DNA of 64,000 nucleotides from Verrucomicrobiales bacterium (GTDB lineage Bacteria > Verrucomicrobiota > Verrucomicrobiia > Verrucomicrobiales > V1-33), in the NCBI GenBank assembly GCA_035550135.1, contig DASZQB010000107.1, forward strand, positions 12,064 to 76,063, written 5' to 3'. The position numbers and the translations under genes are program-made. The notes below the pieces were generated by a model. The model was not told where the DNA came from. It was given only the letters and a program-made list of their open reading frames with translations, and searched no databases. This document shows positions 1,150 to 28,602 of this stretch, piece after piece. The first letter of the stretch is position 1. Every line of letters begins with the position of its first letter.

Positions 1150-1250
1150 AGTGCCGGCACGGAAGGAAAAACCACCGGGACCGTCAATGAATGCTTGCGG
1201 GCATTCGCGTATGTCCGGTGCAGCTTCCGGAGGGCGTTACCCATTCCTCA

Positions 1251-3758: not shown

Positions 3759-3849
3759 TTGCGAAAAATATAGCACTCCCGTCACTGACAATGCCAGACG
3801 AATTCAGGAAAGCATGTTAGCGCCCGGCCCGGCGCCCTCCGGTGGAGAA

Positions 3850-4830: not shown

Positions 4831-4908
4831 AAGGCACAGAGACGCGGGGTTGCGCGCGCCGGATTTACCGGTTCACGAACAAACCCGGATCTGCAACGGC
4901 GGATCAAG

Positions 4909-7963: not shown

Positions 7964-8593
7964 ATGAACTCCCGGATCCTGTTTTCGATTGCTGTGTGGC
8001 TCTGCGGAATTTCCGCTTCCTTCGCTCAGGAAAAGACCGTGCCTGCGCCGTCACCTTCCGCGGCCCCCGCCGTTTCACCCCCTGCCGCGCAAAAACGAAC
8101 TTTTGTCAGGCCTAACGTGCCCGCCGCTCTTTTCACACCGGAAAAAACCGCTCTTCTTGAACCGGAATGTGAGCGCATCGCCTCTTTTCTCGCGCGCTAT
8201 GCCGCTGAAAAGTATACGGCCGGCGTTCTGCGCGGTGAAGCCACCGCCGTCTCTCAGGGCCGTCTGTTCCTCACCATTTCCCTGCATCTCCAGCCCCTGA
8301 ATGCCTCCGCCGTCCATTGCACCACCCGGTGGATCGATGGCAAGGAGCCATCCCTTCCTGCACCGGGCGATAACCTGCGCGTCTTCTCCGGATTTCTCCT
8401 TTCCGCCGCCAAACGTCAGGCGGATAAATCCACACCGGCCCGCGAAGCCCTCGGGCGCATCCTCACCCGCCTCGCCGCCGATCTCGATCCCGGAAACGAA
8501 GATGCCGTTTACGCCAGCGAAATCCAGGATCGCGATGATAAGACCCCGCCTCTCAAGGAACTTCTCAGCGGCACGCTGGGACGCGGCTGGTAA
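7964..8593 (+). CDS. hypothetical secreted protein
   Basis: The track start is a TTG at 7961. The ATG at 7964 gives MNSRILFSIAVWLCGISASFAQE, a signal peptide. It begins 5 nt after the MBL stop. Confidence 0.6.
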   Translation: MNSRILFSIAVWLCGISASFAQEKTVPAPSPSAAPAVSPPAAQKRTFVRPNVPAALFTPEKTALLEPECERIASFLARYAAEKYTAGVLRGEATAVSQGRLFLTISLHLQPLNASAVHCTTRWIDGKEPSLPAPGDNLRVFSGFLLSAAKRQADKSTPAREALGRILTRLAADLDPGNEDAVYASEIQDRDDKTPPLKELLSGTLGRGW

Positions 8594-8603
8594 GCGTCAT
8601 TTG

Positions 8604-10211: not shown

Positions 10212-10888
10212 GACGAGGCTCCTCCTTTGAAACGATAACCCGCGCCGCGCACCGCCTCGATCACCTGCGGTCCGCCGGGCGTTTCGATCTTCCGCCGCAG
10301 ACGTCCCACCGCCACATCCACCATGTTAGTGCCCGTGTCGAAATGCAGATTCCACACGTGCTGGCCAATCTGTGAGCGCGCCAGCACACGTCCCGGCGAA
10401 CGCATGAAATACTCCAGCAGTGCAAACTCCCGCGCGCTCAACTCGATGACTTCACTCCCCCGCCGCACTTCGCGTGTCGCTACATTCAGCGACAAATCAC
10501 CCGCTTTCAGGAGACTGACCGGAGCGCCGCCGGACCGACGCAGCAGCGCGTGCATTCGCGCCACCAGTTCCTCGACGTAAAACGGTTTGGTCAGATAATC
10601 GTCCGCGCCTGCATTGAGTCCCTCCACGCGCTCGTTCAATTCCCCGCGCGCCGTCAAAAGCATTACCGGCAGCGTAATTCCTTTCTGCCTGAGGCTGCGC
10701 AAAATGCTCAGCCCGTCGCGGCCAGGCAGCATGACGTCCAGAACGATCGCATCATAAGACTCCGTGGTCGCATTGAAAAAACCGTCTTCACCGGTGTGGC
10801 AAACATCCACGGCAAATCCGTTCTCGCGCAATCCCTGCTCGATAAAGGCGGCGATCTTTTTCTGATCTTCAATAACAAGAATGCGCAT
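10208..10888 (-). CDS. OmpR-family response regulator, CusR/CopR-like
   Basis: MRILVIEDQKKIAAFIEQGLRENGFAVDV...LDVMLPGRDG receiver domain and a winged-helix C-terminus (LSAREFALLEYFM...VDVAVGRLRRKIE). I chose the ATG at 10888 rather than the track start at 10918. Confidence 0.9.
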   Translation of the reverse strand: MRILVIEDQKKIAAFIEQGLRENGFAVDVCHTGEDGFFNATTESYDAIVLDVMLPGRDGLSILRSLRQKGITLPVMLLTARGELNERVEGLNAGADDYLTKPFYVEELVARMHALLRRSGGAPVSLLKAGDLSLNVATREVRRGSEVIELSAREFALLEYFMRSPGRVLARSQIGQHVWNLHFDTGTNMVDVAVGRLRRKIETPGGPQVIEAVRGAGYRFKGGASS

Positions 10889-10956
10889 GGTCCTGCGTGT
10901 CCGTGAATGTGAACACACAGTGAACGCATTTTGGCCTCCGGAAAAGGCCGCAGGCG

Positions 10957-10998
10957 AAAAATGACAGCGCTGTCATCTTTCTGTCATCGCACTGTCAG
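10957..10998. promoter_or_regulatory. CusR-box-like inverted repeat ATGACA-N4-TGTCAT plus two extra TGTCA half-sites in the divergent intergenic region
   Basis: AAAAATGACAGCGCTGTCATCTTT contains a perfect 16-bp palindrome at 10961-10976. It is followed by CTGTCAT (10981-10987) and CTGTCAG (10992-10998). It lies about 70 nt upstream of the regulator gene and about 180 nt upstream of the EF-hand gene. Confidence 0.5.
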
Positions 10999-11158
10999 CC
11001 GGGGTGCAGTGACCGGGTCAAAGAGCCGTGAAGAATGACACGGACGTCATGAAAGCGTCACGGGGCAGTTACGTCCGCGTGCTTTTATATGCACGAAGCT
11101 TTTACCGGCTTCCCGCATGGCTCTGCCAGGCGGAACCCCAACCAAAGAAACCAAATCA

Positions 11159-11740
11159 ATGAAAAACAGGAAACTGAATCTCATCGTCGCAGCGCTCGCC
11201 GCCAGCGGTTCCATCGCATTCGCAGGTCACGGCGGAGGCGCTGGTGCCGCCGCCCGCGGGGGTCATCATCTCCCGCCCCAGCGCGGGATTCCCGCCGAAG
11301 TGCTCGCCCAATTCGATGCCGATGGCGACGGCGTCCTGAGCGACGAAGAAAAGGCCGCATGGAAAGCCGCGGAGGCCGCCGCCCGCGCCGAGTTCATCGC
11401 CAAGTACGACGCCGACGGCGATGGCGTCCTCAACGCCGAGGAGCGCGCCGCCGCCAAAGCAGACCAGGAAGCCGCCCGCATCGCGGCATTGACGGAAAAA
11501 TTCAATGCGCTCGACACGGACGCCAGCGGCGGGCTCTCCGCTGAGGAATACGCCGCCGGCGCCGCCGCGGACGAAGACGCCGAAAAAGTCGCCGCCCGCT
11601 TTGCGCGCCTCGACGCCGACTCCGGCGGTTCCGTCACCCTTGAAGAGTTCACCGCCGCCAAGGCCAATTGCGCTCCGCGCGTCCCCAAAGGCGGCAGCAG
11701 CAGTGGTGGCACCGCCGCAGCCGCGAAAGTGAGACGCTGA
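11159..11740 (+). CDS. secreted protein with four EF-hand-like calcium-binding loops
   Basis: Signal peptide MKNRKLNLIVAALAASGSIAFA (ATG 11159). Loops are DADGDGVLSDEE, DADGDGVLNAEE, DTDASGGLSAEE and DADSGGSVTLEE. The overlapping 197-aa minus ORF is a shadow frame. Confidence 0.8.
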   Translation: MKNRKLNLIVAALAASGSIAFAGHGGGAGAAARGGHHLPPQRGIPAEVLAQFDADGDGVLSDEEKAAWKAAEAAARAEFIAKYDADGDGVLNAEERAAAKADQEAARIAALTEKFNALDTDASGGLSAEEYAAGAAADEDAEKVAARFARLDADSGGSVTLEEFTAAKANCAPRVPKGGSSSGGTAAAAKVRR

Positions 11741-11832
11741 CCGCCTCACGACTCATGACGGCTGGACCGGACGCGAACATCCCCGGTCCTGCCGTCCCTC
11801 CTCTCTATCTCAATTCAACAAATCTCCACCCC

Positions 11833-12915
11833 ATGAATTCTTCAGTCCTCCGCCAGGCAGCCATTCGCTTCTTCGTCCCCGTTGCCACCTTTATGGCGGG
11901 ATGGAGCCTTCATACCGCTGCGCCGAATGACGCCGTCTCTTCGGTTTCCGCCGCTTCCCCCCGACTTCGCCCTGGCAACTTCCGCTCTCTTCACGCTGCG
12001 GCAAACCCTCGCGCTGCTGAACCGGAAGTCCTCACTCTGAGTAAACGCCCTGGACCGGCGGGCCGCATCGCATCGCTCCTTCTTCATGCCGAAACGCTCG
12101 ACGCCCCCGGCACTCTCGCCGCCCTCAAAGCTCTCGATCTCCAGTCCCCCGGCACCGACATCCGCACCGCCCGCCAAATCCTTCTCGCCCGCTACGCCGA
12201 TCTCGATCCCGAAACAGCCCTAACGTACGTCGATACCCTTTCCGCCGAAGACCGCACCGCCTCCGCGCTAACCATCATGAACGCCTGGGCTGCCCGCGAT
12301 CCCCGCGCTGCTGCGGCCCACCTTGAAACCGGCATCGGCAGTTTCGGACTCAGCGAAGAGGACGCCGCGCTCAGCGCCGCCGGCATCGCTGCCGCATGGG
12401 CCGCGCAGGACATGGCGGCCGCCACGCAGTGGGTCGGTGGACTCTCCGAAGACTTGCGCGCCGCCGCCATTCCAGCCCTCACAGGCACGCTCGCTGCCAC
12501 CGATCCCGTGCGGGCCGCCGCTCTCGCTGCCGCACTTCCTGCCGGATCCGAACAAGCCGCCGCCCTTTCCTCCGTCGCTCTCCAATGGGGCCAGACTGAT
12601 CCACGCTCCACCGCTTCCTGGATCCGAACCCTGTCCGATTCATCGGCACAAACAGCTGCCGCCTCCAGCCTCGTCACCGCATGGATGCAAAGCGATCCCT
12701 CTGCCGCCTCGCAGTGGGTGAACACGCTTCCCAACGGTGCTCTTCGCGATAATGCCATCGTCGCCCTCACTCAATCTCCCGCCATCCGCAACGACGCCGA
12801 AAGCACCGTCGCATGGGCCTCCTCCATTAAGGACGTTCAGTTGCGCGAATCCACGCTCGCGCCTGCCCTGCAGCGCCGGCAGTATCAACAGATACGTATT
12901 GCCGCGCAGCGCTGA
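11833..12915 (+). CDS. N-terminally anchored helical-repeat protein, paralog 2 of the 'W..DP..A..W' family
   Basis: The ATG at 11833 (MNSSVLRQAAIRFFVPVATFMAGW) is preferred over the track start at 11668, which overlaps the EF-hand gene. Repeats include WAARDPRAAAAHLE, WAAQDMAAATQWVGGLS, WGQTDPRSTASWIRTLS and WMQSDPSAASQWVNTLP. Confidence 0.7.
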   Translation: MNSSVLRQAAIRFFVPVATFMAGWSLHTAAPNDAVSSVSAASPRLRPGNFRSLHAAANPRAAEPEVLTLSKRPGPAGRIASLLLHAETLDAPGTLAALKALDLQSPGTDIRTARQILLARYADLDPETALTYVDTLSAEDRTASALTIMNAWAARDPRAAAAHLETGIGSFGLSEEDAALSAAGIAAAWAAQDMAAATQWVGGLSEDLRAAAIPALTGTLAATDPVRAAALAAALPAGSEQAAALSSVALQWGQTDPRSTASWIRTLSDSSAQTAAASSLVTAWMQSDPSAASQWVNTLPNGALRDNAIVALTQSPAIRNDAESTVAWASSIKDVQLRESTLAPALQRRQYQQIRIAAQR

Positions 12916-12918
12916 CGC

Positions 12919-13683
12919 TCACATTTCCGCCGCATAGGCCGTCAGTTCCGGCACATCGCCGCGGGCCAGTACTTCCGCGCAGGTGCCGCAGGCAAGAAGC
13001 TGCCCGCTTTCCTCACGGGCGGCAACAAAGGCAACGCGGTCGCACACCTTGCGCGCCTGACGTAGATTATGCGTTACGAGCACGATCGAATGCTTCGTTT
13101 TGAGCCGAAGAATGAGTTCCTCGATTGCCTCTGTGCTGCGCGGATCAAGGGCGCTCGTGGGTTCATCCATCAGGATTACCTCCGGCCGCGACGCGAGCGT
13201 GCGGGCCAGGCACAGGCGCTGCTGCTGACCGGTGGAAAGCCTCCCCGCCGGTTGCTTGAGCCGGTCTTTCACCTCGTCCCACAATGCAGCGGAACGCAGT
13301 GCCTCCTCAGCCACTGTCGGCCACTCTGCAGACGGGATGCGCCCAAGATGCCGCACACCAAAGAGCACGTTGGCGAGGATGCTTTTCGGAAACACCACCG
13401 GCTGCTGAAACAGCATGCCGATGCGCGTGCGCAGGTCGTCGCCATTCACACCGCTTGCATAAATTTCGCTGCCCTGAAAACGAATCTGCCCGCTCACCCG
13501 CAGCCCGGGCGTCAGCACGATGAGCCGGTTCAAACACTTGAGCAGCGTGCTCTTTCCAGCCCCGGACGGCCCAATGAGCCCGAATACGCCGCCAGGCGGG
13601 ATATCAAAGGAAACTCCGGACAACAGTTTCCGCGGACCGGCGGTTACCGTAAGGTTGCTGATTTGAAAAACGGGCGCGGACAT
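12919..13683 (-). CDS. pstB: phosphate ABC transporter ATP-binding protein
   Basis: Walker A GPSGAGKST, ABC signature LSTGQQQRL, Walker B VILMDEPTSALD. It is last in a pstS-C-A-B gene order. Confidence 0.95.
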   Translation of the reverse strand: MSAPVFQISNLTVTAGPRKLLSGVSFDIPPGGVFGLIGPSGAGKSTLLKCLNRLIVLTPGLRVSGQIRFQGSEIYASGVNGDDLRTRIGMLFQQPVVFPKSILANVLFGVRHLGRIPSAEWPTVAEEALRSAALWDEVKDRLKQPAGRLSTGQQQRLCLARTLASRPEVILMDEPTSALDPRSTEAIEELILRLKTKHSIVLVTHNLRQARKVCDRVAFVAAREESGQLLACGTCAEVLARGDVPELTAYAAEM

Positions 13684-13693
13684 GGCAAGCGGC

Positions 13694-14548
13694 TTAACCA
13701 GGACGGGCTTCCTCGTGAATTTTCAATCTCGCTGGCAGGGCAATCAAATTCAGAATGAATACAACCGCGAGCAACGACAGTGCCGTGCCCCACACCTTGG
13801 AACCAACCGACGGATCGAAACTGTCCTGAGCGAGAATAAAAATATGATAGGGCAGCGACAGCACCGGGTTCTCTTTGATGCCGCCGGGAATCGTAGCTCC
13901 CGCAAAAATGGTTGCCGTAAACATGATCGGCGCAGTTTCACCCGCCGCGCGCGCCAGCCCCAGCAATGAGCCGGTGATCAGCCCGCTCACACTTTGCGGC
14001 AGGATCACGGACCGCACGGTCTGCGATTGAGTCAACCCAAGCGCAGCGGCGGCTTCCACGTATTGCCGCGGCAGACTCGCAATGCGCTCCATCAGCGCCA
14101 CTGTGACCGTCGGCAGGATCATAAACCCCAGAAGCATGCCGCCGGAAAGCCAGCTCTTTCCCCATCCGAGCCACTGCACAAAAACGATCATGCCAAAAAT
14201 CCCGAATAGAATGCTGGGTACTCCATTCAAAACATAAAGCACGACGGTGAGCTTGTCCCGGTGACGGCTGTGCTGCCAGTAAACCCCGTGCATCAGCGCG
14301 ATGCCCGTGGCCAGTGGCGCGCTCACCGCCAGCGCCGTCAGCAGCAGGATGCCCGTACCGATAAGATTGTAAAAAATGCCGCCTGCCGCCCCGACGAGCC
14401 GAATCTGCTCCGTAAAAAACTGCCAGCTGATCGCCGGCCAGCCGCGCACCCAAATAGCCCATACGATGATCGCCAGCACACTGCACGCACACACCGCACA
14501 CAGTGCGGTGACCAGTCGCAGAAGATGGTGGATCAGCTTACGTCGCAT
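13694..14548 (-). CDS. pstA: phosphate ABC transporter permease PstA
   Basis: Polytopic permease with the EAA-like loop (YVEAAAALGLTQSQTV). The ATG at 14548 (MRRKLIHHLL) overlaps the pstC end by 11 nt. The track start at 14581 appears to be a TTG. Confidence 0.9.
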   Translation of the reverse strand: MRRKLIHHLLRLVTALCAVCACSVLAIIVWAIWVRGWPAISWQFFTEQIRLVGAAGGIFYNLIGTGILLLTALAVSAPLATGIALMHGVYWQHSRHRDKLTVVLYVLNGVPSILFGIFGMIVFVQWLGWGKSWLSGGMLLGFMILPTVTVALMERIASLPRQYVEAAAALGLTQSQTVRSVILPQSVSGLITGSLLGLARAAGETAPIMFTATIFAGATIPGGIKENPVLSLPYHIFILAQDSFDPSVGSKVWGTALSLLAVVFILNLIALPARLKIHEEARPG

Positions 14549-15437
14549 GACGGGAGGAGATGCGTTGCAGCCAAACGCCAAGGATGGTCACCACGACCGC
14601 CAGCGCCAGCAACAGAAGGCCAAGGCCCACCATCGCCCCCCAATGCAGCGGCTCACCGTAGGCAATGTTCGTCTCAGATCCGCCCAGTTTCGTGGTGAGC
14701 GTTTGCCCGGCCTCGATGAGCGGCTTCAGTGACAGCAGGGATTCCGGCCACTGATTGTCCTGACGGCCCACAATGAGAAACACCGCAATCGTCTCTCCCA
14801 GCGCGCGTCCTGTTGCCAGCAGGATTGCGGCCAGCATTCCGGGCAGTGCCTGCGGCAGCACCGTGAAGAGCACGCATTCGCCGGCATTGAGTCCCAGTGC
14901 GCGCGACGCCAGACGCTGAGTGGACGGCACACCGCGCAGCGCATCGTCCGCCAGCGTTACGACGGTGGGCAGTATCATCACCGCCAGCAAAATTCCTGCC
15001 GTGAGCAGCGTGTCCCCGCTGAGCGGCTCATAGGCTTCCAGCGCTTCATAGACCCAGTCGCGCAGCAGCAAAATACCCAGCAATCCATAAACCACCGATG
15101 GAATCCCCGCGAGCAACTCGATGCTTCCCTTCACCAGCAATCGAAACTGCCTGGGCAGGAACTCCGAAATAAAAACAGCGGCACCCATTCCGAGAGGGGC
15201 CGCCAGCAGCAGCGCGATCGCCGCCACCGCCACCGTACCGTAAATCATGGGCGCGGCCCCGAATTTGCCGTCGCGATAAAACCACTCGGTTCCCGTCACG
15301 AATCCACTGCCTTCATGGCGCCACACCGGCAGGCTCTGAATGACGAACAGAGCCACCATGCCCACAGCCGCCGCGAGCGCGACAAGGGTGAAAACATAAC
15401 TCGCCACTTTCGTGGCGCTCCATCTCCGGCGCAGCAT
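14538..15437 (-). CDS. pstC: phosphate ABC transporter permease PstC
   Basis: Polytopic permease (…QRLASRALGLNAGEC… EAA-like loop), located between pstS and pstA. Confidence 0.9.
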   Translation of the reverse strand: MLRRRWSATKVASYVFTLVALAAAVGMVALFVIQSLPVWRHEGSGFVTGTEWFYRDGKFGAAPMIYGTVAVAAIALLLAAPLGMGAAVFISEFLPRQFRLLVKGSIELLAGIPSVVYGLLGILLLRDWVYEALEAYEPLSGDTLLTAGILLAVMILPTVVTLADDALRGVPSTQRLASRALGLNAGECVLFTVLPQALPGMLAAILLATGRALGETIAVFLIVGRQDNQWPESLLSLKPLIEAGQTLTTKLGGSETNIAYGEPLHWGAMVGLGLLLLALAVVVTILGVWLQRISSRHAT

Positions 15438-15440
15438 CCC

Positions 15441-16304
15441 TTACTTTTTCTCAGGGGTGGCCGGCTTCAGTTGCGCCAGAGCAAGGTAGCCATGCTTCTT
15501 CACCAGTTCCTGGCCGCGGTCGCTTAACATAAAGTCCACCATCGTCTTCGCATCTCCGGCAGGTTCACCATTAGTTAGGATAAACAACGGACGGCTCATC
15601 GGATACTTGCCCGTGGCGATATTCTCCGTCGCCGGCGCGATATCCTTCCCCTCGACCTTAAGGCTCAACGCAAACACCTTTTGGTTGTCGGCCCAGGATG
15701 ATGACAACTGCGAAAGCGCCCCCTTGGTGGACGCCACCTTGTTTCGCGTCTCCTCATTGCCCCCCACCTCGGGGAAACTCACCGCCGGAGCCTTTTTAGG
15801 ATCGCCATAGATCCAATGCACAAACACCTCCCAGGTCCCGCGCCCAGGCTCTTTGTTGAAGAACGCAATCCGCCGGTTCGGCCCGCCCACGTCCTTCCAA
15901 TTCTTGATCTTTCCCTCATAAATCCCCGCAAGCTGCTCTTTTGTTAGCGACTTCACACCCCCGTCCCACACGTCTTTGGAAACAATCATCGCCACCGCAT
16001 CCGCGCCGATCTGAATTTCCTTGTATTTGCACGCCAGAAACTTCGCGCGGTCCGCCTCGCTGACGTGTTTGGAAATCATCCCGATCTGCACCAGTCCCTC
16101 ACCCAGCATCGAAATCCCGCCGGAACTTCCGCCCTGCGTGTCCACCTGAATTTCCATCTTCTTCTCGGCCCTCAAAATCTCAGACGCCTCCGCCACCGGC
16201 AGATTCACCGTCGTGGAGCCGTTGATCTTCAGAACATCCGCACGCAGCGACAAACCGCCCAGCAGCACCGTGGAGGCAAAAATTATCAGTAGCCGTTTTT
16301 TCAT
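15441..16304 (-). CDS. pstS: PstS-family phosphate-binding periplasmic protein
   Basis: Signal peptide MKKRLLIIFASTVLLGGLSLRA (ATG 16304; the track start at 16328 is further upstream). INGSTTV and GGSSGG motifs of PBP type-2 phosphate binders. First gene of the pst operon. Confidence 0.85.
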   Translation of the reverse strand: MKKRLLIIFASTVLLGGLSLRADVLKINGSTTVNLPVAEASEILRAEKKMEIQVDTQGGSSGGISMLGEGLVQIGMISKHVSEADRAKFLACKYKEIQIGADAVAMIVSKDVWDGGVKSLTKEQLAGIYEGKIKNWKDVGGPNRRIAFFNKEPGRGTWEVFVHWIYGDPKKAPAVSFPEVGGNEETRNKVASTKGALSQLSSSWADNQKVFALSLKVEGKDIAPATENIATGKYPMSRPLFILTNGEPAGDAKTMVDFMLSDRGQELVKKHGYLALAQLKPATPEKK

Positions 16305-16403
16305 ATATGCCCGTTCATGCATGTGCACGATTTGGCATACAAGAAAAATCTTTTGCGTCTTCCCGTCCCGCCGCGAACCAAAATCCGATCGTCTGGCGCG
16401 CGA

Positions 16404-19400
16404 TTAATAGCCCATCCAGGGACTCATCCATTTTTCCATCGCCTCCACGGTCATTCCTTTTCTCCGGGCGTAGTCTTCGATCTGATCCTTCTGAAGATCT
16501 GAGATCATGAAATAGTGGCTTTCCGGATGGCTGAAATACAGCCCGCAAACGGCCGATCCCGGATGCATCGCCATCGATTCCGTCAGCGTCACACCGGTCT
16601 GGGCGGTGGCATCGAGCAGATCGAAAAGAATCGTCTTCTCTGTGTGATCCGGTTGCGCAGGATAGCCCGGTGCAGGCCGAATTCCCCGATAGTTCTCCTT
16701 GATCAACTGTTCCGCATTGAACTCGTTAGGCCTCTCATAGCCCCACGCCACCCGCGCCCGGTGATGCAGCAGTTCCGCAAACGCCTCCGCCAGCCGGTCA
16801 CCAATCGCCTTTACCATGATGGCGCCATAGTCGTCATGCGCCTTCTTCAGTTCCCCCGCAAACTCGTCCGCGCCGTGAATGCCCACCACAAAGGCGCCGA
16901 TGTAATCAGGCCGCGCGCTTTCACCTTGCGGCGCCACATAGTCGGCAAGCGCCTCATTTGGCCGCTGCGCTTCAGTACCACTCTTCTCAATTTGCTGCCG
17001 AAGGGTGTGAAAAGTGTATCTCACCTCAGATCGGGACTCATCCGTAAACACATCGATATCATCCCCGCGGCTGTTGGCCGGAAAGAAGCCGTATGTCCCG
17101 CGCGCGACCAGCCGTTTCTCCGCAATGATGCGCTCCAGCCATTCCAGCGCATCCGCGTGCAGTTTCATCGCCTGCTCCACCACTTCCGGATTCGATGACT
17201 TGAATCGATCCTCCCCATAAACCCAAACACCGCGCAGTTCCCAACTGTGGAAAAAGGGCGTCCAGTCAATATAGGTCGCCAGTTCCCGCAGCGACTGATC
17301 CTTGATCACCCGTGTTCCCAGAAACTCCGGAACAGCAATGTCCACGGTGTCCCAGGCGGTCTGCACCGCATTGGCGCGCGCGGCCTCAAGGCTGATCACC
17401 GGTTTCTTTTGCCGGTTGGCAAACTGTTCCTTCAACTTCACATGCCGCGCCTCGTTATCGAGAACAAACTGCTCCCTCTGATTGTCGCTCAGCAGCGCCG
17501 TGGCCACCGGCACACTGCGGCTGGCATCGAGCACGTGAACCACGCTTCCTGAATATTTGGGCGCGATCTTAATCGCAGTATGCGGCGCGCTCGTCGTCGC
17601 CCCGCCAATTAGCAGCGGCGTTTTGAAACCCAGCCGCTCCATTTCAGACGCCACATGCGCCATTTCATCGAGACTCGGAGTAATCAGTCCTGACAAACCA
17701 ATAATGTCCGCATTCACCTCCTTCGCCTTCTCCAAAATCTTCTCGCACGGCACCATAACACCCATGTCGATGACCTCGAAATTATTGCACGCCAGCACTA
17801 TGCCCACGATGTTCTTGCCGATGTCGTGAACATCCCCTTTCACCGTCGCCAGGACGATAACCCGCGCACCTGCTTTCTCCTGAGCAGGAATCAGGACGAC
17901 TTCTGAGGAGACGGTTCCTCCATCAGGCGTGAGGTCTGGTTTTCCGCTGCTTTGCGGAGAACCTGCTCGGTGTCGTCCACCAGCCTCCGCTGGAAGCTGT
18001 CCATTTCGGACTTTGTTTTCTGTTTCCGAACCGCCGCCTCCGTGAGAGCTTCCAAGGTTCCGTTCTGGATTTCCTGAAACTTCGCTGCTATATCCGGACT
18101 CAGGTCCGGTCGAAAGGCTCTCCAAGTCTGTGTTTGATCCGGTTCCATGAGATAACCCTCTCGGCCTTATACGCGCACGTTCAAGCGCTTCCTGTTTCAC
18201 GCGCTCTTTCTCGGCTGTCATGAAAGGCTCCAGCCACGCCACGCTCTTCTTCATCACGCGCGCGCTCTTCACCACTTGCGGGAGAAACATTTTGCCGGCG
18301 CCAAAAAGGTCGCCCACGACGCTCATTCCGTCCATCAGCGGTCCTTCAATCACCTTCAGCGGCGCTCCGTATTTCAACCGCGCCTCCTCGGTGTCTTCGT
18401 CCACAAAATCCGTTAGGCCCTTGAGCAGTGCATGCTTCAGTCGCTCCTCCACCGGCCCGTCCCGCCAGGCGAGGTCCGCCTCCACTTTCTTCCCAGCCAC
18501 GCCGCGGAATTGCTCCGCATAGTCCACGAGAATTTCCGTGGCATCCGGCCGGCGGTTCAACAGGACATCTTCGACCTTTACCAAAAGTTCCGCCGGTATT
18601 TCCTCATACACCTCCAGCATGCCCGCATTCACGATGCCCATATCCATGCCTGCCTTGATGGCGTGATAAAGGAACGCCGAGTGCATCGCCTCGCGCACCA
18701 CATTGTTCCCACGGAAACTGAAGCTGATATTGCTCACGCCGCCGCTAACCTTCGCAAACGGCAGGTTCCCTTTGATCCACCGCGTGGCCTCGATGAAGTC
18801 CACCGCGTAATTGTTATGCTCCTCGATGCCCGTCGCCACGGTGAGGATGTTGGGATCGAAAATAATATCCTCCGGCGGAAAACCTACCTCATCCACGAGA
18901 ATGCGATAGGCCCGTTCACAGATGCGAATCTTATCCTCCCGCGTTGCGGCCTGCCCCTGTTCATCAAACGCCATCACCACCGCCGCCGCACCGTAGCGCA
19001 GGACGAGGCGCGCCTGCTCCTTGAACTTCTCCTCCCCCTCCTTCAGCGAGATGGAATTTACAATCCCCTTGCCTTGGATACACTTCAAACCGGCTTCAAT
19101 GACAGACCATTTCGACGAGTCGATCATGATCGGCACCTTCGTGATTTCCGGCTCCGCCTGGATGAGCAGGAGGAATTTCGTCATCATCGCCTCCGAATCG
19201 AGCAACCCTTCGTCAAAGTTGATATCGATGACATTCGCACCGTTCTCCACCTGCTGGCGCGCCACGGCCAGCGCCTCGTCCAGCTTGCCCTCTTTCACCA
19301 GCTTCGCAAACCTCGGCGAACCGGTGACGTTCGTCCGCTCGCCAATCATCAGAAAATTCGAGCCGGCGCGCAGATTGTATGGAAGTGCTCCGGAGAGCTG

Positions 19401-20498
19401 CATTTCATGGCTGGCGGACGGCACCGGACGCGGGGCGTGCCGCTCTACCGCTTTTGCAATGGCGGCGATGTGCTCCGGAGTGTTCCCGCAGCAGCCGCCC
19501 ATGAGGTTCAGCATCCCTCCGCCGGCAAATTCATCGGCAAACCGCGCCATATCCTCCGGGTGTAAATCGAAGCCGGTGGCTGACAGCGGATTGGGCAGAC
19601 CGGCATTTGGATAGGCGGAAACAAAGCAGTCCGCCTTCCGCGCCAGTTCTTCGAGATCCCCGCGCATCTGGGCCGGACCGGCACAGCAATTCATCCCGAT
19701 CGAAAGCGGCTTCACATGCCGCATGGCGTTGAGGTACCCTTCGACGGATTGAGCGGAGACCATCGTGCGCCCGTTAACCACGGCGGCAGAGATCATCACC
19801 GGCAGCCGGTAATTTCCGGCCGCAAACGATTCCTCAATCGCCATGAGGGCCGCTTTCGCATTCAGCGAATCGAAAATCGTTTCCACCAGCAGGATATCCA
19901 CGCCGCCGGCTACCAGCGCATCCGTCTGCTCTCGATAGGCGCGTTTTGCCTGGTCAAATGTGATAGGGCGAAAGGCCTGATCCTCCGGCTCGATGGGAAA
20001 ATTGAGCGACACCTGCATAGGGCCGATGGCCCCGGCCACATAACGCTTTCGCCCTGTTTCGTTGCTGTAACGATCCGCCCACTCCCGGCAAAGCCGGGCG
20101 GACTGAAAGTTGATGTCGCGGGCCACTTCGATCAGGAACGGATCGTCGAGCACGTTCTGAAAAAACTCCGGATCTTTTCGCCCCCCGTGATCCCGCGGGT
20201 CATCCCGGAAAAAGTCACTCAGCGCCAGCGAGGTGCCATTAAAACTGTTCGTTTCAATAATGTCCGCTCCCGCCTCCAAAAACCGGCGATGAATATCCCC
20301 GATTACGTCAGGGCGGGTCAGGCTGAGGAAGTCTCCATTGTTTTTCAGATCCTTGCCCGCATTGGCAAACCGCTCCCCGCGGACGTCCCTCTCCGTCAGC
20401 TTATACTCCCGAATCGTCGTTCCCATCGCTCCGTCGATCACAAGGATACGATTCGCGAGAGCGGCGCGGAGTTCGGCGGTCTGGTCGGGTTGAGGCAT
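16404..20498 (-). CDS. metH: cobalamin-dependent methionine synthase with an atypical ~120-aa linker insertion
   Basis: All modules are present. Hcy-binding domain: VIDGAMGT...GGCCGT. Pterin-binding domain. Cap plus B12-binding domain: [22 protein letters not shown]. AdoMet activation domain: [13 protein letters not shown]. It is 1364 aa, versus 1227 aa for E. coli MetH. Confidence 0.95.
17891..18148 (-). CDS. 85-aa alternate-frame ORF nested inside the metH linker insertion (hypothetical; expression unproven)
   Basis: ATG at 18148 with purine-rich GAGAGGG 7 nt upstream (plus-strand CCCTCTC at 18156-18162). The translation [85 protein letters not shown] looks like a folded helical protein, unlike the Gly/Ser/Pro-rich metH-frame reading of the same DNA. 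Confidence 0.3.
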
Positions 20499-20580: not shown

Positions 20581-22365
20581 TCATTCCGCCACCGCGTGCA
20601 GCCGACAGAAGGCGCGTACCGTCGCAGGTCCGGGTAGGGAAACCGTCACGACACTCCCTTCCTCTCCCACGAGCACTCCCGGCGTCTCCGCCGTCCAGCT
20701 ACCGGCGCCGGGCGCGCGTCCGGCCAGCGGCATCCACGTGCCCAACTCCGTAGAATACTCCACCGTCAGCCGCACTCCGGGGGTCACAGAAGCGGGAGCG
20801 AACCGCATACGGGGCGGGTCGTCGGCAACCGCCGTTGGGAGAGCCGCCGTATCCGTCGAGGTGAGCGGATCAGTGCCCAAAACGTGCTCCATCAGGTTAT
20901 CCAGGCCATCATGATCGGCATCCGCATTCGGCGCTGCGTCCGCCGTCTGCGCTCCCGCAGGCCCGAACCGGTCCACGCGCCACTGGTCGAACGGATGATC
21001 CTGGATAGTTAGGGCCGCGGTGATCGTGGGAGCAGAAGCCGGGAACGTGGCAGGACCATCGAGCGTGCTCAGGGTCAATGAAAAGGTTTCGTCGCCCTCC
21101 GGTTGGTGATCGTTCGCCAGCGGAATCACGATGGTTTTCTCTGCCGGATCATTCGCCGCCCACGTCAGAGTCCCGCTCGCGGCAGTGAAATCCGCGGCGG
21201 TGGCCGTGCCCGGCGCGGTTTGATATTGCACACTGAGCGCCTGATCGAGGCTCGCTCCGGAGCGGCGCACGGTGACGGTCACGCTCCCTGCACTCTCGTT
21301 CGCACTGTATGCAGCCGCGCTCAACAACACTGAGCCGAGAGGAATATTAGCACTGTCCCCCAGGTGTGGCGCCGCCGTGGGGGAAGCACTGAGTTGCACC
21401 GGCGGATTCGCCGTCTGATTCGTGTTAGGGTTGTAGCTGACGCTCATGCCTTGTAGCGCGGCTTCTGTCAGTGCGGCCGGCGGACGCTTCAGCCGGAAGT
21501 AGTCCACCTCGGAAACGAGATCAGGCTGCCCAGGGCCCGGCGGCGCGTAGTTCGCATGAAACGACGTCTGCACCCCTCCGTTGCTGAAAGGCTCGCCATT
21601 GGGCCAATCCGTATAAGCCGTAATGCCCACCTGGAGCGTCGGCCCGAACGCCGGGAACGGATGATCCGGATTTGGATAGCGGTTCTCCACCAGCCACGGC
21701 CCCGCCTCGGAATACTTGCGCAGGCACACCACGGTATTCCCCACGCGCACCATCTGCATCCACGCCACATTGCTGGATTGATCGATCCCCGTGGCACCGA
21801 AATAGAGAATCGAGTTGCTGTTCCGCGTGGTCTTGATCTCAAACTGCCGCGTGCCCGGGTTGCCCGCCGACCCGAAACTGAGGAAGATGTAATTTTCTGT
21901 ATTGGGAACGTAATCACTGCCAAAAGCCGCCGGCGGCCACACCGCATCTGTGCGGTACGGATTCGGGGCCGCATGCGTGATGTAAGGCCGCGGCTCGTGA
22001 ATGAAGATGCCGGTTAGCGAGAAACTGCGGTTGGGCACTTCCAACGGGTTCGCCGGATTGTGCCGGCTGAACACGCGCAGCCGCGTCGTGGCAATGAAGT
22101 CGCCCGTCACTTCTTTAAAAAACAGCACGCCGCGCAAATGCATGTACCACCCAAGGGCAATAGGCACGATCCGAAAATGGCCAGGCGTCGTCGTGTTGAT
22201 GTCTGCTGCTTCATCAGTGGACGCCACCCAGCCCTCGACGACATCGATATCCTGCCACCGCGGGAACGTCGCGGCGTCGTTGAATTCATCCCCGAGCGGC
22301 TGCAGCGTGTCAGCCATCGCGGAGGAGAGAAGACATAATGAGGTAACAAGGGATGCAGTTTTCAT
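20581..22365 (-). CDS. secreted protein: ConA/LamG-like N-domain, Calx-beta domain, TSP3-like motif and C-terminal tail
   Basis: The ATG at 22365 (MKTASLVTSLCLLSSAMA) overlaps the upstream stop (ATGA). Calx-beta-like segment DFTAASGTLTWAANDPAEKTIVIPLANDHQPEGDETFSLTLS. DADHDGLDNLMEHVLGTDP motif. Ends ...VRAFCRLHAVAE. Confidence 0.75.
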   Translation of the reverse strand: MKTASLVTSLCLLSSAMADTLQPLGDEFNDAATFPRWQDIDVVEGWVASTDEAADINTTTPGHFRIVPIALGWYMHLRGVLFFKEVTGDFIATTRLRVFSRHNPANPLEVPNRSFSLTGIFIHEPRPYITHAAPNPYRTDAVWPPAAFGSDYVPNTENYIFLSFGSAGNPGTRQFEIKTTRNSNSILYFGATGIDQSSNVAWMQMVRVGNTVVCLRKYSEAGPWLVENRYPNPDHPFPAFGPTLQVGITAYTDWPNGEPFSNGGVQTSFHANYAPPGPGQPDLVSEVDYFRLKRPPAALTEAALQGMSVSYNPNTNQTANPPVQLSASPTAAPHLGDSANIPLGSVLLSAAAYSANESAGSVTVTVRRSGASLDQALSVQYQTAPGTATAADFTAASGTLTWAANDPAEKTIVIPLANDHQPEGDETFSLTLSTLDGPATFPASAPTITAALTIQDHPFDQWRVDRFGPAGAQTADAAPNADADHDGLDNLMEHVLGTDPLTSTDTAALPTAVADDPPRMRFAPASVTPGVRLTVEYSTELGTWMPLAGRAPGAGSWTAETPGVLVGEEGSVVTVSLPGPATVRAFCRLHAVAE

Positions 22366-25300
22366 GGGGTCACGAGGCGGAATTCCAAACGGTAATAGGC
22401 ACGGGAGGAGTCGTGCGGATCGATGCGAAAACGAATCTGCTGCATGGGGAACTCCGTGGATGCCGGTTCGGCACTCACTACCGCGCCGTCCATCGAAAAC
22501 CGGCTCCACGTTAGGAGATCGTCACTGCGCCACGGAATGGCGAGAAGATCAAATGCATCCGCGCGATAGCGGGCGACGGGATCTCCGGACGCCGTAAGCG
22601 CTGGGGCAGGGAAGGAGTCTGCCTTCGCGGGGTTCAATCCCGCAGCATATTCCTCAATGAGCGTGAGACCGTCCCCATCGTTGTCTGACCCGGGGATTGC
22701 CGGCACGCCATGGGCTGCTGCCCACGCAGCGAAGTTTTGCCGGAGCGGGGCAGGAGACTCGGGACGCCCATCGAGTTGCAGCAGATACGCGCGAAGTTGC
22801 TCCTGTGCCGCCGCCGGAAGGGAAAGAACCTGACGGTGCGGAAGCGCCGCCGCCAGATCATCAGCCGTGGAAATAAGCACATCATCGATTCCCACCCCCG
22901 GCCAATTGCCAGTGACGGAAAATGTCAGGGTATTCACACTGCCGGCGTTAAACGGCACGTTTTCAAGCCGCACCTGCCGCCAGTTGGTTTGCCGCCACAC
23001 CGGAAAATTGCCGGTGTTGGGCGTAGCCATGGTTCCAGCCGCTACGCCGTTCACACTCACATTAACCGCGATGAAGTTGCCGCCCGTGCTGTAACGGATC
23101 TCAATCGCGCCCGTCCCGCCGCTGCCGCCATTCACGCCGGTTAGGGTGAGCGTCTGACCGCTGGCGCTGAGATTCGCATACGCCCGGCCATGAACCGTGT
23201 CGTCATTGTTCAGATTGACGTAAGTGTTCGTAATGGACGCCCCGGCCGAAGGCATGCCCGTCTCAGCCGGGATGACTTTCCCGCCCGAGATGCGAAAGAC
23301 ATCCGCCAGCGTCGCTGCGGAGCCATCGTGAAAATAAGGTGTCGTGTCCCAGAGACCCTGCAACGAAGGCGCATCGATCCCCGCAAGTGGCTGTCCCAGT
23401 CTTTTGCCGGAAGTCGTGCGCAGCGTGCCAACATTCACCAAAGGATTCGTGGCCAGTGCCTCAGTGCGGTGACAGATGGCGCAATTCAAGCTGTCATAGA
23501 TGGCCTTTCCGGCGATCGCGGAGGAAGTCATCGCACCATCCGCCTGACGGTGCGGACTGCGCGGAATCGACTCCTGGCCAAGCGAACTCACATATGCCGC
23601 GAGCGCGTCGAGGTCTGCGCTGCGTCCGGATTTGGGCGCACCCAACGGCGTGTTAGCGGCAGCGAAATCCACGTCACTTAAAAACCCGCTGCCGCCAAAC
23701 GCCGTACGAATGTCATGCTCGAAGTCCTGGATCTCATCGAAATTCCCGGACCAGTGCACCCGCCCCTGAGCCATGCCGCTCCGGCCTTGCAGCGTCGTGG
23801 TGTTGCGCAACCCCTCACCGCGTCCGGTAAAGTCCCATACGCGCCCGTCGTGGCCCCCATCCAGGTGACACGTCGCACAGCTGATATATCCCTCGGCGCT
23901 CATGCGCCTGTCCCCGGCATTGTAGAAAATTCGCTTCCCCGTGAGCACCGCGGGCGGCAGCTTTTCCGCGCTGACCGTCGAAGTCTCCGTGGCAGCAGGA
24001 ATGTGACCACCCGTGCGGAGAAAGGTGTCCATCTCCAGTACCGAGACACTGCGACCCAGCAAATTACTCAGCCAAACCCGTTGTGTCGCCGGGTCGGCGG
24101 CCAATCCCTGCGGCGCGCTGCCAACGGCCAGCCTCCTCTCCACTGCGCCAAGCCCGGCGGACATCGCAATCGACAGTGCATCGAAGACCATGATCTGATT
24201 ATTGCCCTGAAGCGAAACAAAAAGCCGGTCGCCCAGCGGTGAAAACGCAACCGCCGAAGCCGAATCGGAGTTGTCCAGATCGATGGCACCCGCAACCGTC
24301 GAACTGGTTAGGTCAATCCTGGTGAGGATGTTGCGCACCGTGTTGTCCTGGTCCAGGTCTTCGGCGAAAAGCAGCCCGCGTTCCGTATTCACCTTTGTCG
24401 AAGCCACATACGCCGTAGTGCCATCCGGGCTAATGGCGATTGCCGCGAGCGCATTCGCCACTCCCCTGCCGGACGCCGTGCCGTCACGGTTCGCGTCGTC
24501 CCCGAATTTCGGAATGACGATGGTGCGGGTTAACGTGAAGGAACTTGTGTTGACGTCCCAAACCTCCGCGTGATTCAGCGGCGAGAGAAACCGCGTGACC
24601 AGCAGACGTGAACCATCGCCCGTCAGAGCGAGCGCCCGCGGACCAGGTCCCAGCGCCAGACTGCCTGTCTCTGCACGTGTTGCGGTGGAGAAGCGCTTAA
24701 CGGTTCCTCCACCGAAACAGCTAACATAAGCATGCTGACCATTCGGTGAGAGGACGATGCCGAACGGCGCGCTTCCGTGTCCCGTGAAGATACGATGCAG
24801 CGTTCCGCCGCTGGCGGCGTCAAGCACATCAATGCAGTCGCCACCGTGACACACCACCCATAACCTCCCCTGCGCATCCAGCGCCAGCGAACGCGGATCG
24901 CCGCCCACCGGCACCTCCTGGAGTTTATCCCGTGTATCCGCATCCAGCGCCGTGACGGTGTCACTGTCCGGATTGACGACCCACACCCGGCGCGATGCGG
25001 GATCAACTGCAATTTGTGAATGTTGTCGCGGCAGCGAACCCGCGGGTGGCGCGATGACAGTCACAGTGAATGCCCGTGTCACCACGACACCCGATGGGTC
25101 CCGCACCTGCACCTTCGCCTGATAGTGACCGGCGCCGGCGTAAGCATGCAGCGTCGCCGCTGTCGCGCCCCATTCCGTCCTGGGCGAACCATCCCCAAAA
25201 TCGAAACGCATTTCCACCGTATCCCCATCCGGATCGGATACCGCCGCCGTAAAGGTCACGTTCTGACCGGGGTTCACCGGATACGGCGCTGCCATGAAGG

Positions 25301-26738
25301 AGTCCACCACCGGCGGACGATTTCCGGACAGTGTCCCGCCGGTCGAAAAGGTGAACGCATACGGCACCATGCCATTCCCCGCCGCATCCTGAATCCCGTG
25401 CGTAAATACAACTTCATAAGTTGTATCCGGCACCAGAGACTGATCCGGCGTAAACGTGAGCGTGTCGTTGAAGGAAAAGAACAACGATCCCTCCAGGTGG
25501 ACCGTGCTTCCCGCCGGCCTGACAATGAATGTGGAACCATTCACGAGCGTCGCCGTTTCGAGCGTCTCGTGAATCAGGGCACTGATCGCCGCCGTGCGCG
25601 GATAGCCCGTCTGCCCTGCCCGCGGAATGTGATAGCCCACCGACGGCCCGCGCGTGTCCGGCGCAGCCTGGTGCGCCCAAATGGCCATCCCCTGGTTCGG
25701 CCCTGCACCTCCTGTCACAAGCAAATTCCCCACCGGCAAAGCGAACTGACTCGTATCAATCCCGGTGCCGCCATCATTTGTCCTAACGGTTGTTGAGCCG
25801 CGGAGATTCAGCACGGATTGAAACGTGCGCAGGTCCACCTTATGGCTGCCGGTGAATCCGTATTCATCCTGACATTGCAGATACATGCACTCGTCACCGG
25901 GCAGCGGCACATCCGCAATGAACTGCAAATTCGCGGGATCGGTCGCATCCACCACGCGGATGCCGTTTCCGCCTTCCCGGTAGGGAAACACAATCAGCAG
26001 CCGTCCGTCTCCTCCCCAAACCTCCGGCCAGTAGCCGCCGGCACCGCCGGTCTTCAGCACATCAAGCAGCACCGGTTTCGCCGGATCGGAAATATCGTAC
26101 GTCGCCACCCCGGTGCGGCTCTGATCCGACGCATAAATCAAAAGGTTTCCCAGCATGATCGGGTGCCCTATCACTCCTGTTAGGCCAAGGTGATCCCACT
26201 CCGCCAGCCGCACACCATCACGCCAGATCGTCGCGTCGCCCTCCACACTTTCGTAGCTCCAATAGGTCTTCCCAAAAAAATACGGCTGATAGAGAGATCC
26301 GCGCCCGTTGGTGTCTGCACGGGTGAAAAACGTCGTGCGCTGGATTTGTCCGGGTGGCCCCATATCGCGAAACGCCCATGGTGATTCCGGCGGCCAGTTG
26401 GTGCCCAGCATCAGATACTCTCCGCTGTTCCAATAGCCGTGCGCATTCACCGGATGCGCCGTCGGCCCCAGTTGCGCCGTGACCACCGGCTGCGCCGGAT
26501 TGCTGATGTCCCACGTCCGTACAATTACGTCAGAGTTAGGCTGACTGGACGGGCTTTCCGGAACGGTGAAGAGCACTCCATTGTGCCATGCAATCACCGC
26601 CGTGCGTCCCTGCTGCGGCGCATTGAGCCCTGACAACAATTGGCCCGGTGTCCGCGGCACGTTGGGAAAACCCGCACCGTCACACAGGGCTGGCGAAAGT
26701 GTCGCAATCACACGAATGACTGACCGAAAATGGTTCAT
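22362..26738 (-). CDS. 1458-aa multidomain protein: beta-propeller, Ig-like and PKD domains, YVTN-type propeller, di-haem cytochrome c peroxidase-like module, sugar-binding-like region, TSP3 motif and tail
   Basis: PKD-like VTFTAAVSDPDGDTVEMRFDFGDGS. YVTN-like VVNPDSDTVTALDADT...GDPRSLALDAQGRLWVV. Two CxxCH sites (CATCHLDGGHDGRVWDF and CAICHRTEAL). DNDGDGLTLIEEYAAGLNP motif. Ends ...RAYYRLEFRLVTP. The start ATG overlaps the kinase stop (ATGA at 26735-26738). Confidence 0.85.
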   Translation of the reverse strand: MNHFRSVIRVIATLSPALCDGAGFPNVPRTPGQLLSGLNAPQQGRTAVIAWHNGVLFTVPESPSSQPNSDVIVRTWDISNPAQPVVTAQLGPTAHPVNAHGYWNSGEYLMLGTNWPPESPWAFRDMGPPGQIQRTTFFTRADTNGRGSLYQPYFFGKTYWSYESVEGDATIWRDGVRLAEWDHLGLTGVIGHPIMLGNLLIYASDQSRTGVATYDISDPAKPVLLDVLKTGGAGGYWPEVWGGDGRLLIVFPYREGGNGIRVVDATDPANLQFIADVPLPGDECMYLQCQDEYGFTGSHKVDLRTFQSVLNLRGSTTVRTNDGGTGIDTSQFALPVGNLLVTGGAGPNQGMAIWAHQAAPDTRGPSVGYHIPRAGQTGYPRTAAISALIHETLETATLVNGSTFIVRPAGSTVHLEGSLFFSFNDTLTFTPDQSLVPDTTYEVVFTHGIQDAAGNGMVPYAFTFSTGGTLSGNRPPVVDSFMAAPYPVNPGQNVTFTAAVSDPDGDTVEMRFDFGDGSPRTEWGATAATLHAYAGAGHYQAKVQVRDPSGVVVTRAFTVTVIAPPAGSLPRQHSQIAVDPASRRVWVVNPDSDTVTALDADTRDKLQEVPVGGDPRSLALDAQGRLWVVCHGGDCIDVLDAASGGTLHRIFTGHGSAPFGIVLSPNGQHAYVSCFGGGTVKRFSTATRAETGSLALGPGPRALALTGDGSRLLVTRFLSPLNHAEVWDVNTSSFTLTRTIVIPKFGDDANRDGTASGRGVANALAAIAISPDGTTAYVASTKVNTERGLLFAEDLDQDNTVRNILTRIDLTSSTVAGAIDLDNSDSASAVAFSPLGDRLFVSLQGNNQIMVFDALSIAMSAGLGAVERRLAVGSAPQGLAADPATQRVWLSNLLGRSVSVLEMDTFLRTGGHIPAATETSTVSAEKLPPAVLTGKRIFYNAGDRRMSAEGYISCATCHLDGGHDGRVWDFTGRGEGLRNTTTLQGRSGMAQGRVHWSGNFDEIQDFEHDIRTAFGGSGFLSDVDFAAANTPLGAPKSGRSADLDALAAYVSSLGQESIPRSPHRQADGAMTSSAIAGKAIYDSLNCAICHRTEALATNPLVNVGTLRTTSGKRLGQPLAGIDAPSLQGLWDTTPYFHDGSAATLADVFRISGGKVIPAETGMPSAGASITNTYVNLNNDDTVHGRAYANLSASGQTLTLTGVNGGSGGTGAIEIRYSTGGNFIAVNVSVNGVAAGTMATPNTGNFPVWRQTNWRQVRLENVPFNAGSVNTLTFSVTGNWPGVGIDDVLISTADDLAAALPHRQVLSLPAAAQEQLRAYLLQLDGRPESPAPLRQNFAAWAAAHGVPAIPGSDNDGDGLTLIEEYAAGLNPAKADSFPAPALTASGDPVARYRADAFDLLAIPWRSDDLLTWSRFSMDGAVVSAEPASTEFPMQQIRFRIDPHDSSRAYYRLEFRLVTP

Positions 26739-28549: not shown

Positions 28550-28602
28550 TACAGACCCGGGTAAATTTTTTCCGAATCCGGCGAAACTTTCCCTCCACAC
28601 CT

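Follow-up and report, generated by a model that had tools for sequence, protein, structure and literature searches.

What a foreign-looking segment of about 300 bp encodes within metH, the gene of cobalamin-dependent methionine synthase (16404..20498, minus strand, 1364 aa), is the question raised by this locus of a Verrucomicrobiales bacterium. The gene lies in a stretch of 64,000 nt (assembly GCA_035550135.1, contig DASZQB010000107.1, positions 12,064 to 76,063 of the forward strand), hereafter called the window, whose numbering is used throughout. The reading frame of MetH is referred to as f0 and the +1 frame as f1. In f0 the segment gives 99 residues (17874..18170, minus strand, IRPRGLSHG...LIPAQEK) of a Gly/Ser/Pro-rich disordered spacer, and in f1 it holds a nested open reading frame (ORF) of 85 aa followed by TGA, named ORF85 (17891..18148, minus strand). 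The original prediction, made from the letters alone, took the segment for captured foreign coding DNA that was either a tolerated linker insertion or a genuine overprinted gene. According to our comparison with related genomes, the insert is probably the 3' remnant of a larger module, read in both frames, with f1 encoding a small protein under selection.

The nearest MetH proteins are those of Verrucomicrobiaceae (Prosthecobacter and allies), and for ten relatives carrying the module the DNA was available (L001, L003, L004 and L085-L091). The f1 ORF is open in all ten, with a length of 59-72 aa from a conserved ATG, compared with 85 aa in the window. The Smith-Waterman comparison of the window f1 with the f1 of the relatives gave z = 11-13 against shuffles, and the same comparison of the window f0 with the f0 tails of the relatives was not significant (z = 2.4, -0.5 and 0.5). 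When the f1 peptides of the relatives were searched against the 64-kb window with tblastn, the sole region matched was 18151-18011 on the minus strand, with E = 7e-13, 9e-9, 1e-8 and 2e-8; the matching queries were L001, L003, L088 and L004, and a fifth, L091, gave none.

The phase of substitutions was analysed as Fitch parsimony steps in an ungapped block of 33 codons from six genes. In the tail block the steps by f0 position were 62/29/25 (p = 2e-5), and in the relatives alone, counted by f1 position, 17/17/44 (p = 9e-5), whereas the control regions of the same genes showed the usual third-position excess in f0 (B12-binding domain, or Cob, 19/15/93; cap, 13/15/94; zeta P-loop region, 8/7/33). 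The wobble position is therefore displaced by one base in this block only. The dN/dS ratios (Nei-Gojobori) were about 0.1-0.4 in f1 and mostly >1 in f0 (for L001 and L003, 0.09/0.84 in f1 and 0.33/0.02 in f0), and the amino acid identity was always higher in f1 (0.48-0.88) than in f0 (0.15-0.70). Between the window and L001, 45 of the 99 nucleotides of the core differ, with 18/33 residues identical in f1 and 8/33 in f0. A neutral simulation of the f1 identity for this pair gave a mean of 9.0 +/- 1.9 and a maximum of 17 in 20,000 runs. All residues of the 33-codon core block that are invariant among five relatives are kept in the window.

These results amount to purifying selection on f1 beyond the constraint of the host frame, the property by which an overprinted gene is recognised, and the family very probably holds a genuine selected +1 coding sequence. 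The nested gene envisaged by the original prediction thus gains comparative support from conservation and openness of f1, its third-position wobble and its low dN/dS, the last being a check that the prediction itself had proposed. Conservation is not confined to f0, f1 is uninterrupted in the relatives, and homologues of the product exist.

The base composition of the insert differs from that of its host gene. The G+C content at third codon positions (GC3) in f0 is 0.33-0.43, compared with 0.71 +/- 0.07 in the remainder of metH, and it is the lowest in-frame value among the 25 long ORFs of the window; by f0 codon position the G+C content is 0.64/0.60/0.42. In f1, the values across the genomes (0.56-0.80 / 0.36-0.56 / 0.73-0.91) correspond to an ordinary coding profile, and the third-position G+C content of ORF85, 0.73, tracks the 0.71 of the genome. 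The tails of three relatives show the same dip, and in each of the four genes tested it is the tail that holds the GC3 minimum of metH. The rare codons in f0 are explained by constraint on f1, since the third position of f0 is the second position of f1. The openness of f1 is by itself no more than chance would give: 23% of codon shuffles are open over at least 91 codons, and open stretches of 85 codons or more in an alternate frame of the same strand number 70 in the 25 genes of the window. What exceeds chance, as far as the sequence comparisons go, is the conservation of f1 in the relatives and not its openness.

The analysis of the MetH linker at this site showed five length classes among the 120 best matches, namely 32-56, 67, 143-168, 234-254 and 358-440 aa. 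The long form (358-440 aa) matches the Pfam family Zeta_toxin (PF06414) with 34 bits against a cut-off of 22.3. It represents an in-frame module of about 1 kb, present in many Verrucomicrobiaceae (in about 45 MetH genes), which consists of a zeta-toxin-like kinase domain and then a disordered tail. The module profile matches PDB 6eph_B (ng_zeta1 of Neisseria gonorrhoeae) with E = 2e-7. An AlphaFold2 model based on a 17-sequence alignment reached a pLDDT of 80 over residues 1-286 and <50 over the last 50 or so residues, and its top Foldseek matches were 6epg/6eph (E ~1e-11, TM 0.62-0.66), followed by AvrRxo1, PezT and zeta. The P-loop lysine K124 and the aspartate D63, located 61 residues upstream, are invariant; their counterparts in ng_zeta1 are K115 and D56 (PMC5923241). 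MetH proteins with the module are 1582-1671 aa long (P0002, P0004-6, P0011, P0013-14, P0018-19, P0025, P0029 and others), and among the module-bearing loci (L001 6001-10749 with the insert at ~8250-9290, L003, L004 and L085-L091) the putative catalytic Asp is invariant. In the window itself no zeta-like domain was found, as the best tblastn hit in the 64 kb had E = 0.46 and Pfam gave nothing in the insert.

A tree of the MetH core built by neighbour joining places P0002, a carrier of the complete module, as sister to the window and its twin P0001. The long, partial and short linker forms are interleaved throughout this tree. The short alleles of the Prosthecobacter clade (P0030-P0119) all have the same 32-aa linker, EK.ANP.QRSAGK, and short and long alleles adjoin at shallow depth, e.g., P0049 (382-aa linker) beside P0060 (32-aa). 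On these sequences, the distribution resembles an ancient polymorphism in which the module is present or absent and alleles are exchanged by recombination, and not a series of many independent deletions. In one further form, L093 (P0042 and P0072, 162-aa linker), f0 reads ...EVRAKFQEWLEARRVLGVE..., which recalls the f1 motif AKFQEI..TLEAL; there the nested peptide may have become part of MetH through a deletion that changed the frame. The Moraxella plasmids (H8-H12) carry an ng_zeta1-type kinase inside genes annotated as zincin-like metallopeptidase or DUF5710, so that the kinase domain may be fused to hosts other than MetH as well.

The host gene shows the organisation of a complete methionine synthase. 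The 99%-identical protein P0001 has all five MetH Pfam domains (PF02574, PF00809, PF02607, PF02310 and PF02965), and through it the five modules, Hcy-binding, pterin-binding, cap, B12-binding and activation, are recognised in order; the GDVHDIG motif is present in the MetH of the window. The insert separates the final helix of the cap from strand beta1 of the B12 domain. In the AlphaFold2 model of MetH residues 646-1037 the cap and Cob fold confidently on both sides of it, and residues 779-877 are coil with pLDDT <50. From the cap-side motif to GDVHDIG the linker of the window measures 137 aa. Linkers of 32-39 aa occur in many close relatives, with 32 aa in other Verrucomicrobiae and the same 32-39 aa range in other phyla, which leaves about 100 residues extra here. 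The ordinary form (32 aa in L023 and many Verrucomicrobiaceae) shares the flanks ...x-AWLxPFMxAEK... and intact modules; in the window, by contrast, the extra part is disordered and dual-coding. The in-frame insertion and its unusual f0 codons were thus described correctly by the original prediction, and the suggestion of a tolerated linker insertion agrees with the model, according to which the f0 reading is a tolerated disordered spacer that need only stay open. The part that did not hold is the capture of foreign DNA as a recent and isolated event, because the segment is the remnant of a module that occupies the same site in relatives, including the sister lineage P0002.

At the 5' junction of the insert (18151..18178, minus strand, TATAAGGCCGAGAG) the 7-mers GTGCGCG (18178-18172) and GGTTATC (18157-18151) lie 14 nt apart, and at the 3' junction (17856..17888, minus strand), where the f0 homology to relatives resumes, the same 7-mers are adjacent (17869-17863 and 17862-17856). 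Two colinear shared 7-mers of this kind occur in ~0.5% of random window pairs, and they could be a trace of the deletion of the kinase or of a re-insertion of the ORF. Just past the ORF85 stop, a hairpin is formed on the minus strand by CCTGCT (17888-17883) and AGCAGG (17874-17869); it has no T-run and was not called in the terminator scan.

Three parts are distinguished in ORF85. The conserved core (residues 7-39, 18032..18130, minus strand) carries the family motif WRxFxPxL...A..F..I..GTLEAL..A. The segment of about 33 codons that follows (residues 40-72, 17933..18031, minus strand) is specific to the window and appears as a gap in the family alignment A3, being absent from the relatives. 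Its origin may be a duplication of the core helix followed by divergence: residues 44-72 compared with the core of the relatives gave p = 0.003-0.065, and the self-comparison with ORF85 was not significant. The C-terminal end (17894..17932, minus strand) is again conserved, with 13 residues and then the stop, and aligns with the relatives' ends SRVMETSEEPPMKRP and GRVQEATPEDPPMKRP, likewise followed by the stop; the last residues are ...EEPPMKRP in the relatives and ...EEPSPQKSS in the window. An example of the +1-frame peptide from the full-module family is FREIEEGTLEALR. In 11/11 genes the f1 stop lies 41-71 nt ahead of GDVHDIG.

The candidate start of ORF85 (18146..18162, minus strand) consists of the Shine-Dalgarno (SD)-like GAGAGGG (18162-18156), a 7-nt spacer and the ATG (18148-18146), as the original prediction had it, and a TAA in the same frame is situated six codons upstream of the ATG. 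In the window, the family ATG and the N-terminal third are gone together with the kinase, and the new ATG with its SD-like sequence stands at the deletion junction. In all ten relatives the f1 ATG is formed by an f0 xAT-GAA pair, which encodes Glu after His, Asn or Asp and belongs to a helix that is conserved in the kinase. Only 26-61% of the His/Asn/Asp codons in the cores of these genes end in T, and multiplied over the relatives these fractions give 3e-5, a value that is overstated, as the lineages are related.

The course of events is probably as follows. In f0 the full module encodes a kinase domain of the ng_zeta1 subclass and then a disordered tail; a small protein of some 65 aa is encoded in f1, across the kinase end and the tail. 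A deletion has removed the kinase from the cap/B12 linker of this genome, and the ~300 bp that survive from the 3' part of the module retain the small ORF with its own ATG, SD-like sequence and extra internal segment. The same DNA would then be read twice, as a flexible spacer of about 100 aa in f0 and as a helical small protein under purifying selection in f1, with ORF85 presumably translated from its own start. The product may be a partner or neutraliser of the zeta-type kinase, left as an orphan after the loss of the kinase.

The kinase has stand-alone homologues on plasmids of Burkholderia, Paraburkholderia, Sphingobium, Moraxella and Neisseria, ng_zeta1 included. The toxin genes of Burkholderia/Paraburkholderia and Sphingobium each contain in f1 a nested ORF of 66-67 aa whose relative position is the same, in the linker past the kinase core (L094 3165-3365; L095 3201-3401, or from 3177; L096 2201-2401; L098 1937-2140), and each of these opens with an ATG from an xAT-GAA pair in the toxin frame. 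By hand counts that are too small for significance, the two frames are conserved in a complementary manner between L094 and L095: the 5' 20 codons are 70% identical in the toxin frame and 35% in +1, the 3' 46 codons are 70% identical in +1 and 34% in the toxin frame, and the nucleotide differences by +1 position are 4/10/7 in the 5' part and 10/7/15 in the 3' part. The ng_epsilon1 antitoxin is a 61-aa coding sequence directly upstream of ng_zeta1, and is an extended, non-globular helical peptide lying over the ATP site (PMC5923241). The profile of the four plasmid nested ORFs aligned with ng_epsilon1 in hhalign (E = 2.7e-4, probability 42%) over the stretches WIQQGMKGIKEMHENEATRRKVADKLF and MIKEACEKNRRMMTDEAFRKEVEKRLY; the resemblance concerns the C-terminal half of the nested ORFs. 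In the two Burkholderia-group plasmids checked (L094 and L095) there is no conserved small ORF upstream of the toxin. The ng_zeta1 gene (L097 1141-2346) has a 75-codon f1 ORF with a TTG start at roughly the same place (L097 1775-2002, plus strand); its basic sequence does not resemble those of the other nested ORFs, and the separate epsilon1 lies upstream of that ng_zeta1.

The module kinase of the relatives thus has its nearest counterpart in ng_zeta1 by both profile and fold, and the nested ORFs resemble the Neisseria antitoxin in size and type. However, that antitoxin is a separate upstream gene, whereas here the small ORF lies in f1 inside the coding sequence of the toxin domain, which in the relatives is fused in-frame into MetH and in the window is missing. 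An antitoxin-like role of the +1 product is put forward tentatively, from the analogy of position, frame and length, from the lack of any conserved neighbouring gene around the metH of the relatives, and from the presence of the f1 ORF with intact kinases in 10/10 cases. The broader proposal is more doubtful. It holds that ng_zeta1-type toxin genes, the solitary ones on proteobacterial plasmids as well as the MetH copy, themselves contain the antitoxin gene, in f1 over the disordered C-terminal linker, and that this gene is an orphan here.

Database searches brought little beyond the relatives. The search of ORF85 with phmmer against 1.84 billion proteins returned two spurious repeat proteins only. 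The insert, alone and with flanks, gave nothing against 5.8 billion proteins, a search which is uninformative because even P0001 was not recovered. The nested peptides are nearly unannotated, as only one of eight sequences (from six loci) was ever called, and that a single time, on a contig of 1.5 kb. That ORF85 lacks homologues in the databases is attributed to gene callers skipping ORFs nested in metH. Neither a second copy of the insert DNA (in the window and in viral and metagenome contigs) nor a relative of ORF85 (in viral and metagenome contigs) was found, a 22-mer had one unrelated chance match in metagenome contigs, and a scan of genome contigs was swamped by ordinary MetH. No terminal inverted repeats were detected at the insert, which has no Rfam match at E <= 1 and no significant RNA fold (z-score -1.49).

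The possibility that ORF85 is the f0 kinase sequence of the relatives read out of frame was rejected, as a hidden Markov model (HMM) of 28 full inserts, run against the three frames, scored it at 0.8-1.4 bits, a value equalled by 17.5% of shuffles, and the Smith-Waterman comparison with the f0 inserts of 16 relatives gave p = 0.16-0.97. A 19-nt blastn match (LVDDTEQ against VVDNTEH, E = 0.05) is best treated as chance. In f0, homology of the insert to the tails of the relatives was not detected by HMM (p = 0.44 and 0.16), and tests of its N-terminal half and for an internal repeat, also in f0, were negative as well. A pairwise likeness was confined to the C-terminal half (p = 0.0007-0.03), which is explained as a by-product of the homology of the underlying DNA.

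Several observations weigh against a functional nested gene with an antitoxin-like product. The kinase-deleted forms L092 (145-aa linker) and L093 have lost the +1 ORF. The changes on the window branch, counted by f1 position, are 13/10/18 and not significantly uneven (p = 0.3), which makes function in this genome less certain than in the family. L002 is the one further genome with this form; its insert does not differ from that of the window and so gives no information on recent selection. SD-like tetramers precede the conserved ATG in 2/10 relatives and are absent in 8/10, and no sigma-70-like promoter was found near ORF85 in the promoter scan. The ORF85 family matches nothing in Pfam, NCBIfam, PHROG, PADLOC and PDB. 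The link between the plasmid ORFs and epsilon1 is modest at an hhalign probability of 42%, and BLASTP gave nothing in any pairwise comparison of the nested ORFs and epsilon1. Finally, the ORF85 family has no detectable similarity to epsilon antitoxins or to the plasmid nested ORFs; its alignment A3 compared with the epsilon1-containing alignment A6 gave E = 0.0085 and a probability of 4.7%, which is not significant. With these points taken into account, we consider it reasonably likely from the sequence comparisons that ORF85 is still functional in this genome.

Four other explanations of the locus were weighed. The simplest, that the insert is the remnant of a disordered linker and ORF85 an accidental open frame, draws on the abundance of long alternate-frame ORFs both in the window and in the shuffles, on the nearly empty phmmer search and on the negative profile tests of ORF85 against the f0 insert of the relatives. 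It is nevertheless very improbable, as the direct comparison of f1 with f1 is highly significant, the +1 shift of phase is confined to the block with three in-gene controls and is accompanied by opposite dN/dS in the two frames, and both the ATG and the length of the ORF are conserved. Recent capture of foreign coding DNA or of a small mobile element would suit the atypical composition and the two 7-mers, which flank the insert like a duplicated target (p ~0.005). It has to be rejected, since the relatives, the sister lineage among them, have a homologous module tail at this site and in this register; the absence of terminal inverted repeats, of a second copy in the window, of any counterpart in viral or metagenome contigs, and of an Rfam match or a significant RNA fold speaks against it as well.

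The other two alternatives accept that f1 is coding, at least in the relatives. Programmed +1 frameshifting would yield a truncated MetH, with the kinase in the relatives, ending in the conserved helix. The lack of SD-like sequences in most relatives is in line with such recoding, and so is the transition itself, since f1 conservation begins where f0 conservation stops (...LF|SP... in the relatives) and the switch point carries CTC-TTT-C in the relatives and C-CTT-TCG after GGAGAG in the window, which we take to be slip-prone by analogy with prfB-type sites. Against it stand the ATG kept in every relative despite the bias against T-ending codons, the constant length of 59-72 aa, the new ATG with an SD-like sequence made at the deletion junction of the window and the ATG-started nested ORFs of 66-67 aa in stand-alone plasmid toxins; moreover, no stop or known stimulatory element occurs past the putative slip site, and recoding therefore appears improbable. 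If instead the f1 ORF were real in the relatives and ORF85 a decaying relic, open by luck after its function was lost here with the kinase, the long branch of the window with its 45% nucleotide divergence in the core block and its changes without significant phase bias would be expected, as would the loss of the N-terminal third and the family ATG, the ~33 inserted codons and the absence of the ORF from L092 and L093. This remains unlikely in view of the 85 codons that are still open at a third-position G+C content near that of the genome, the retention of every invariant core residue, an identity that is twice the neutral expectation (p < 5e-5) and the placement of a new start exactly at the junction. 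A selected nested gene, retained from the module, accounts for these features best.

With regard to the wider locus, the window at 16404-20498 and L002 at 954-5048 (JGI contig Ga0501080_0006759) differ at 102 nt in a patchy manner, with the differences at gene positions 122-227, 1346-2003 and 3323-3765 and long identical runs between them, which suggests recombination between close strains. In the neighbourhood (window 8604-16328 and 20581-28675), genes like pstS-pstC-pstA-pstB and a two-component pair like phoR/phoB come after metH; the genes upstream of metH encode a Calx-beta protein, a Big_5/PKD/lactonase/di-haem peroxidase protein of 1458 aa and a Ser/Thr kinase with a fused FGE-sulfatase domain.

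Small genes nested out of frame on the same strand include comS inside srfAB of Bacillus subtilis, Rz1 inside Rz of phage lambda and gndA inside gnd of E. coli, and long same-strand overlapping genes of bacteria are few and often disputed. ORF85 is like Rz1 in using the +1 frame and like comS in lying inside the gene of a large multidomain enzyme. It has no sequence relationship to any of the three and differs in that its host is metH, in that it overlaps a disordered linker or tail, in that it is part of an inserted toxin-like module, and in that its support is comparative alone (substitution phase and dN/dS). This comparative support is unusually clean, as the phase of substitution moves by one base at the start of a defined block and returns at its end, with controls in the same genes, across 11 genomes. 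The searchable literature contained no paper linking methionine synthase with zeta toxins or describing a zeta-toxin-type kinase in-frame in the MetH cap/B12 linker across a bacterial family, nor any description of a small ORF nested at the corresponding place in the stand-alone toxins of the subclass.

The comparisons support the assignment of ORF85 to a conserved, previously unannotated family of f1 nested ORFs tied to ng_zeta1-type kinase domains. For annotation, the lesson is that a hidden frame can betray itself in a disordered linker by codon usage that looks foreign. A nested ORF in the stand-alone toxins would explain how apparently solitary zeta toxins are restrained. If the peptide is an antitoxin, it would represent a new wiring of a toxin-antitoxin system, in which the pair is inseparable by recombination, and it would raise the question of what role a kinase of cell-wall precursors has inside the methionine synthase of Verrucomicrobiaceae.

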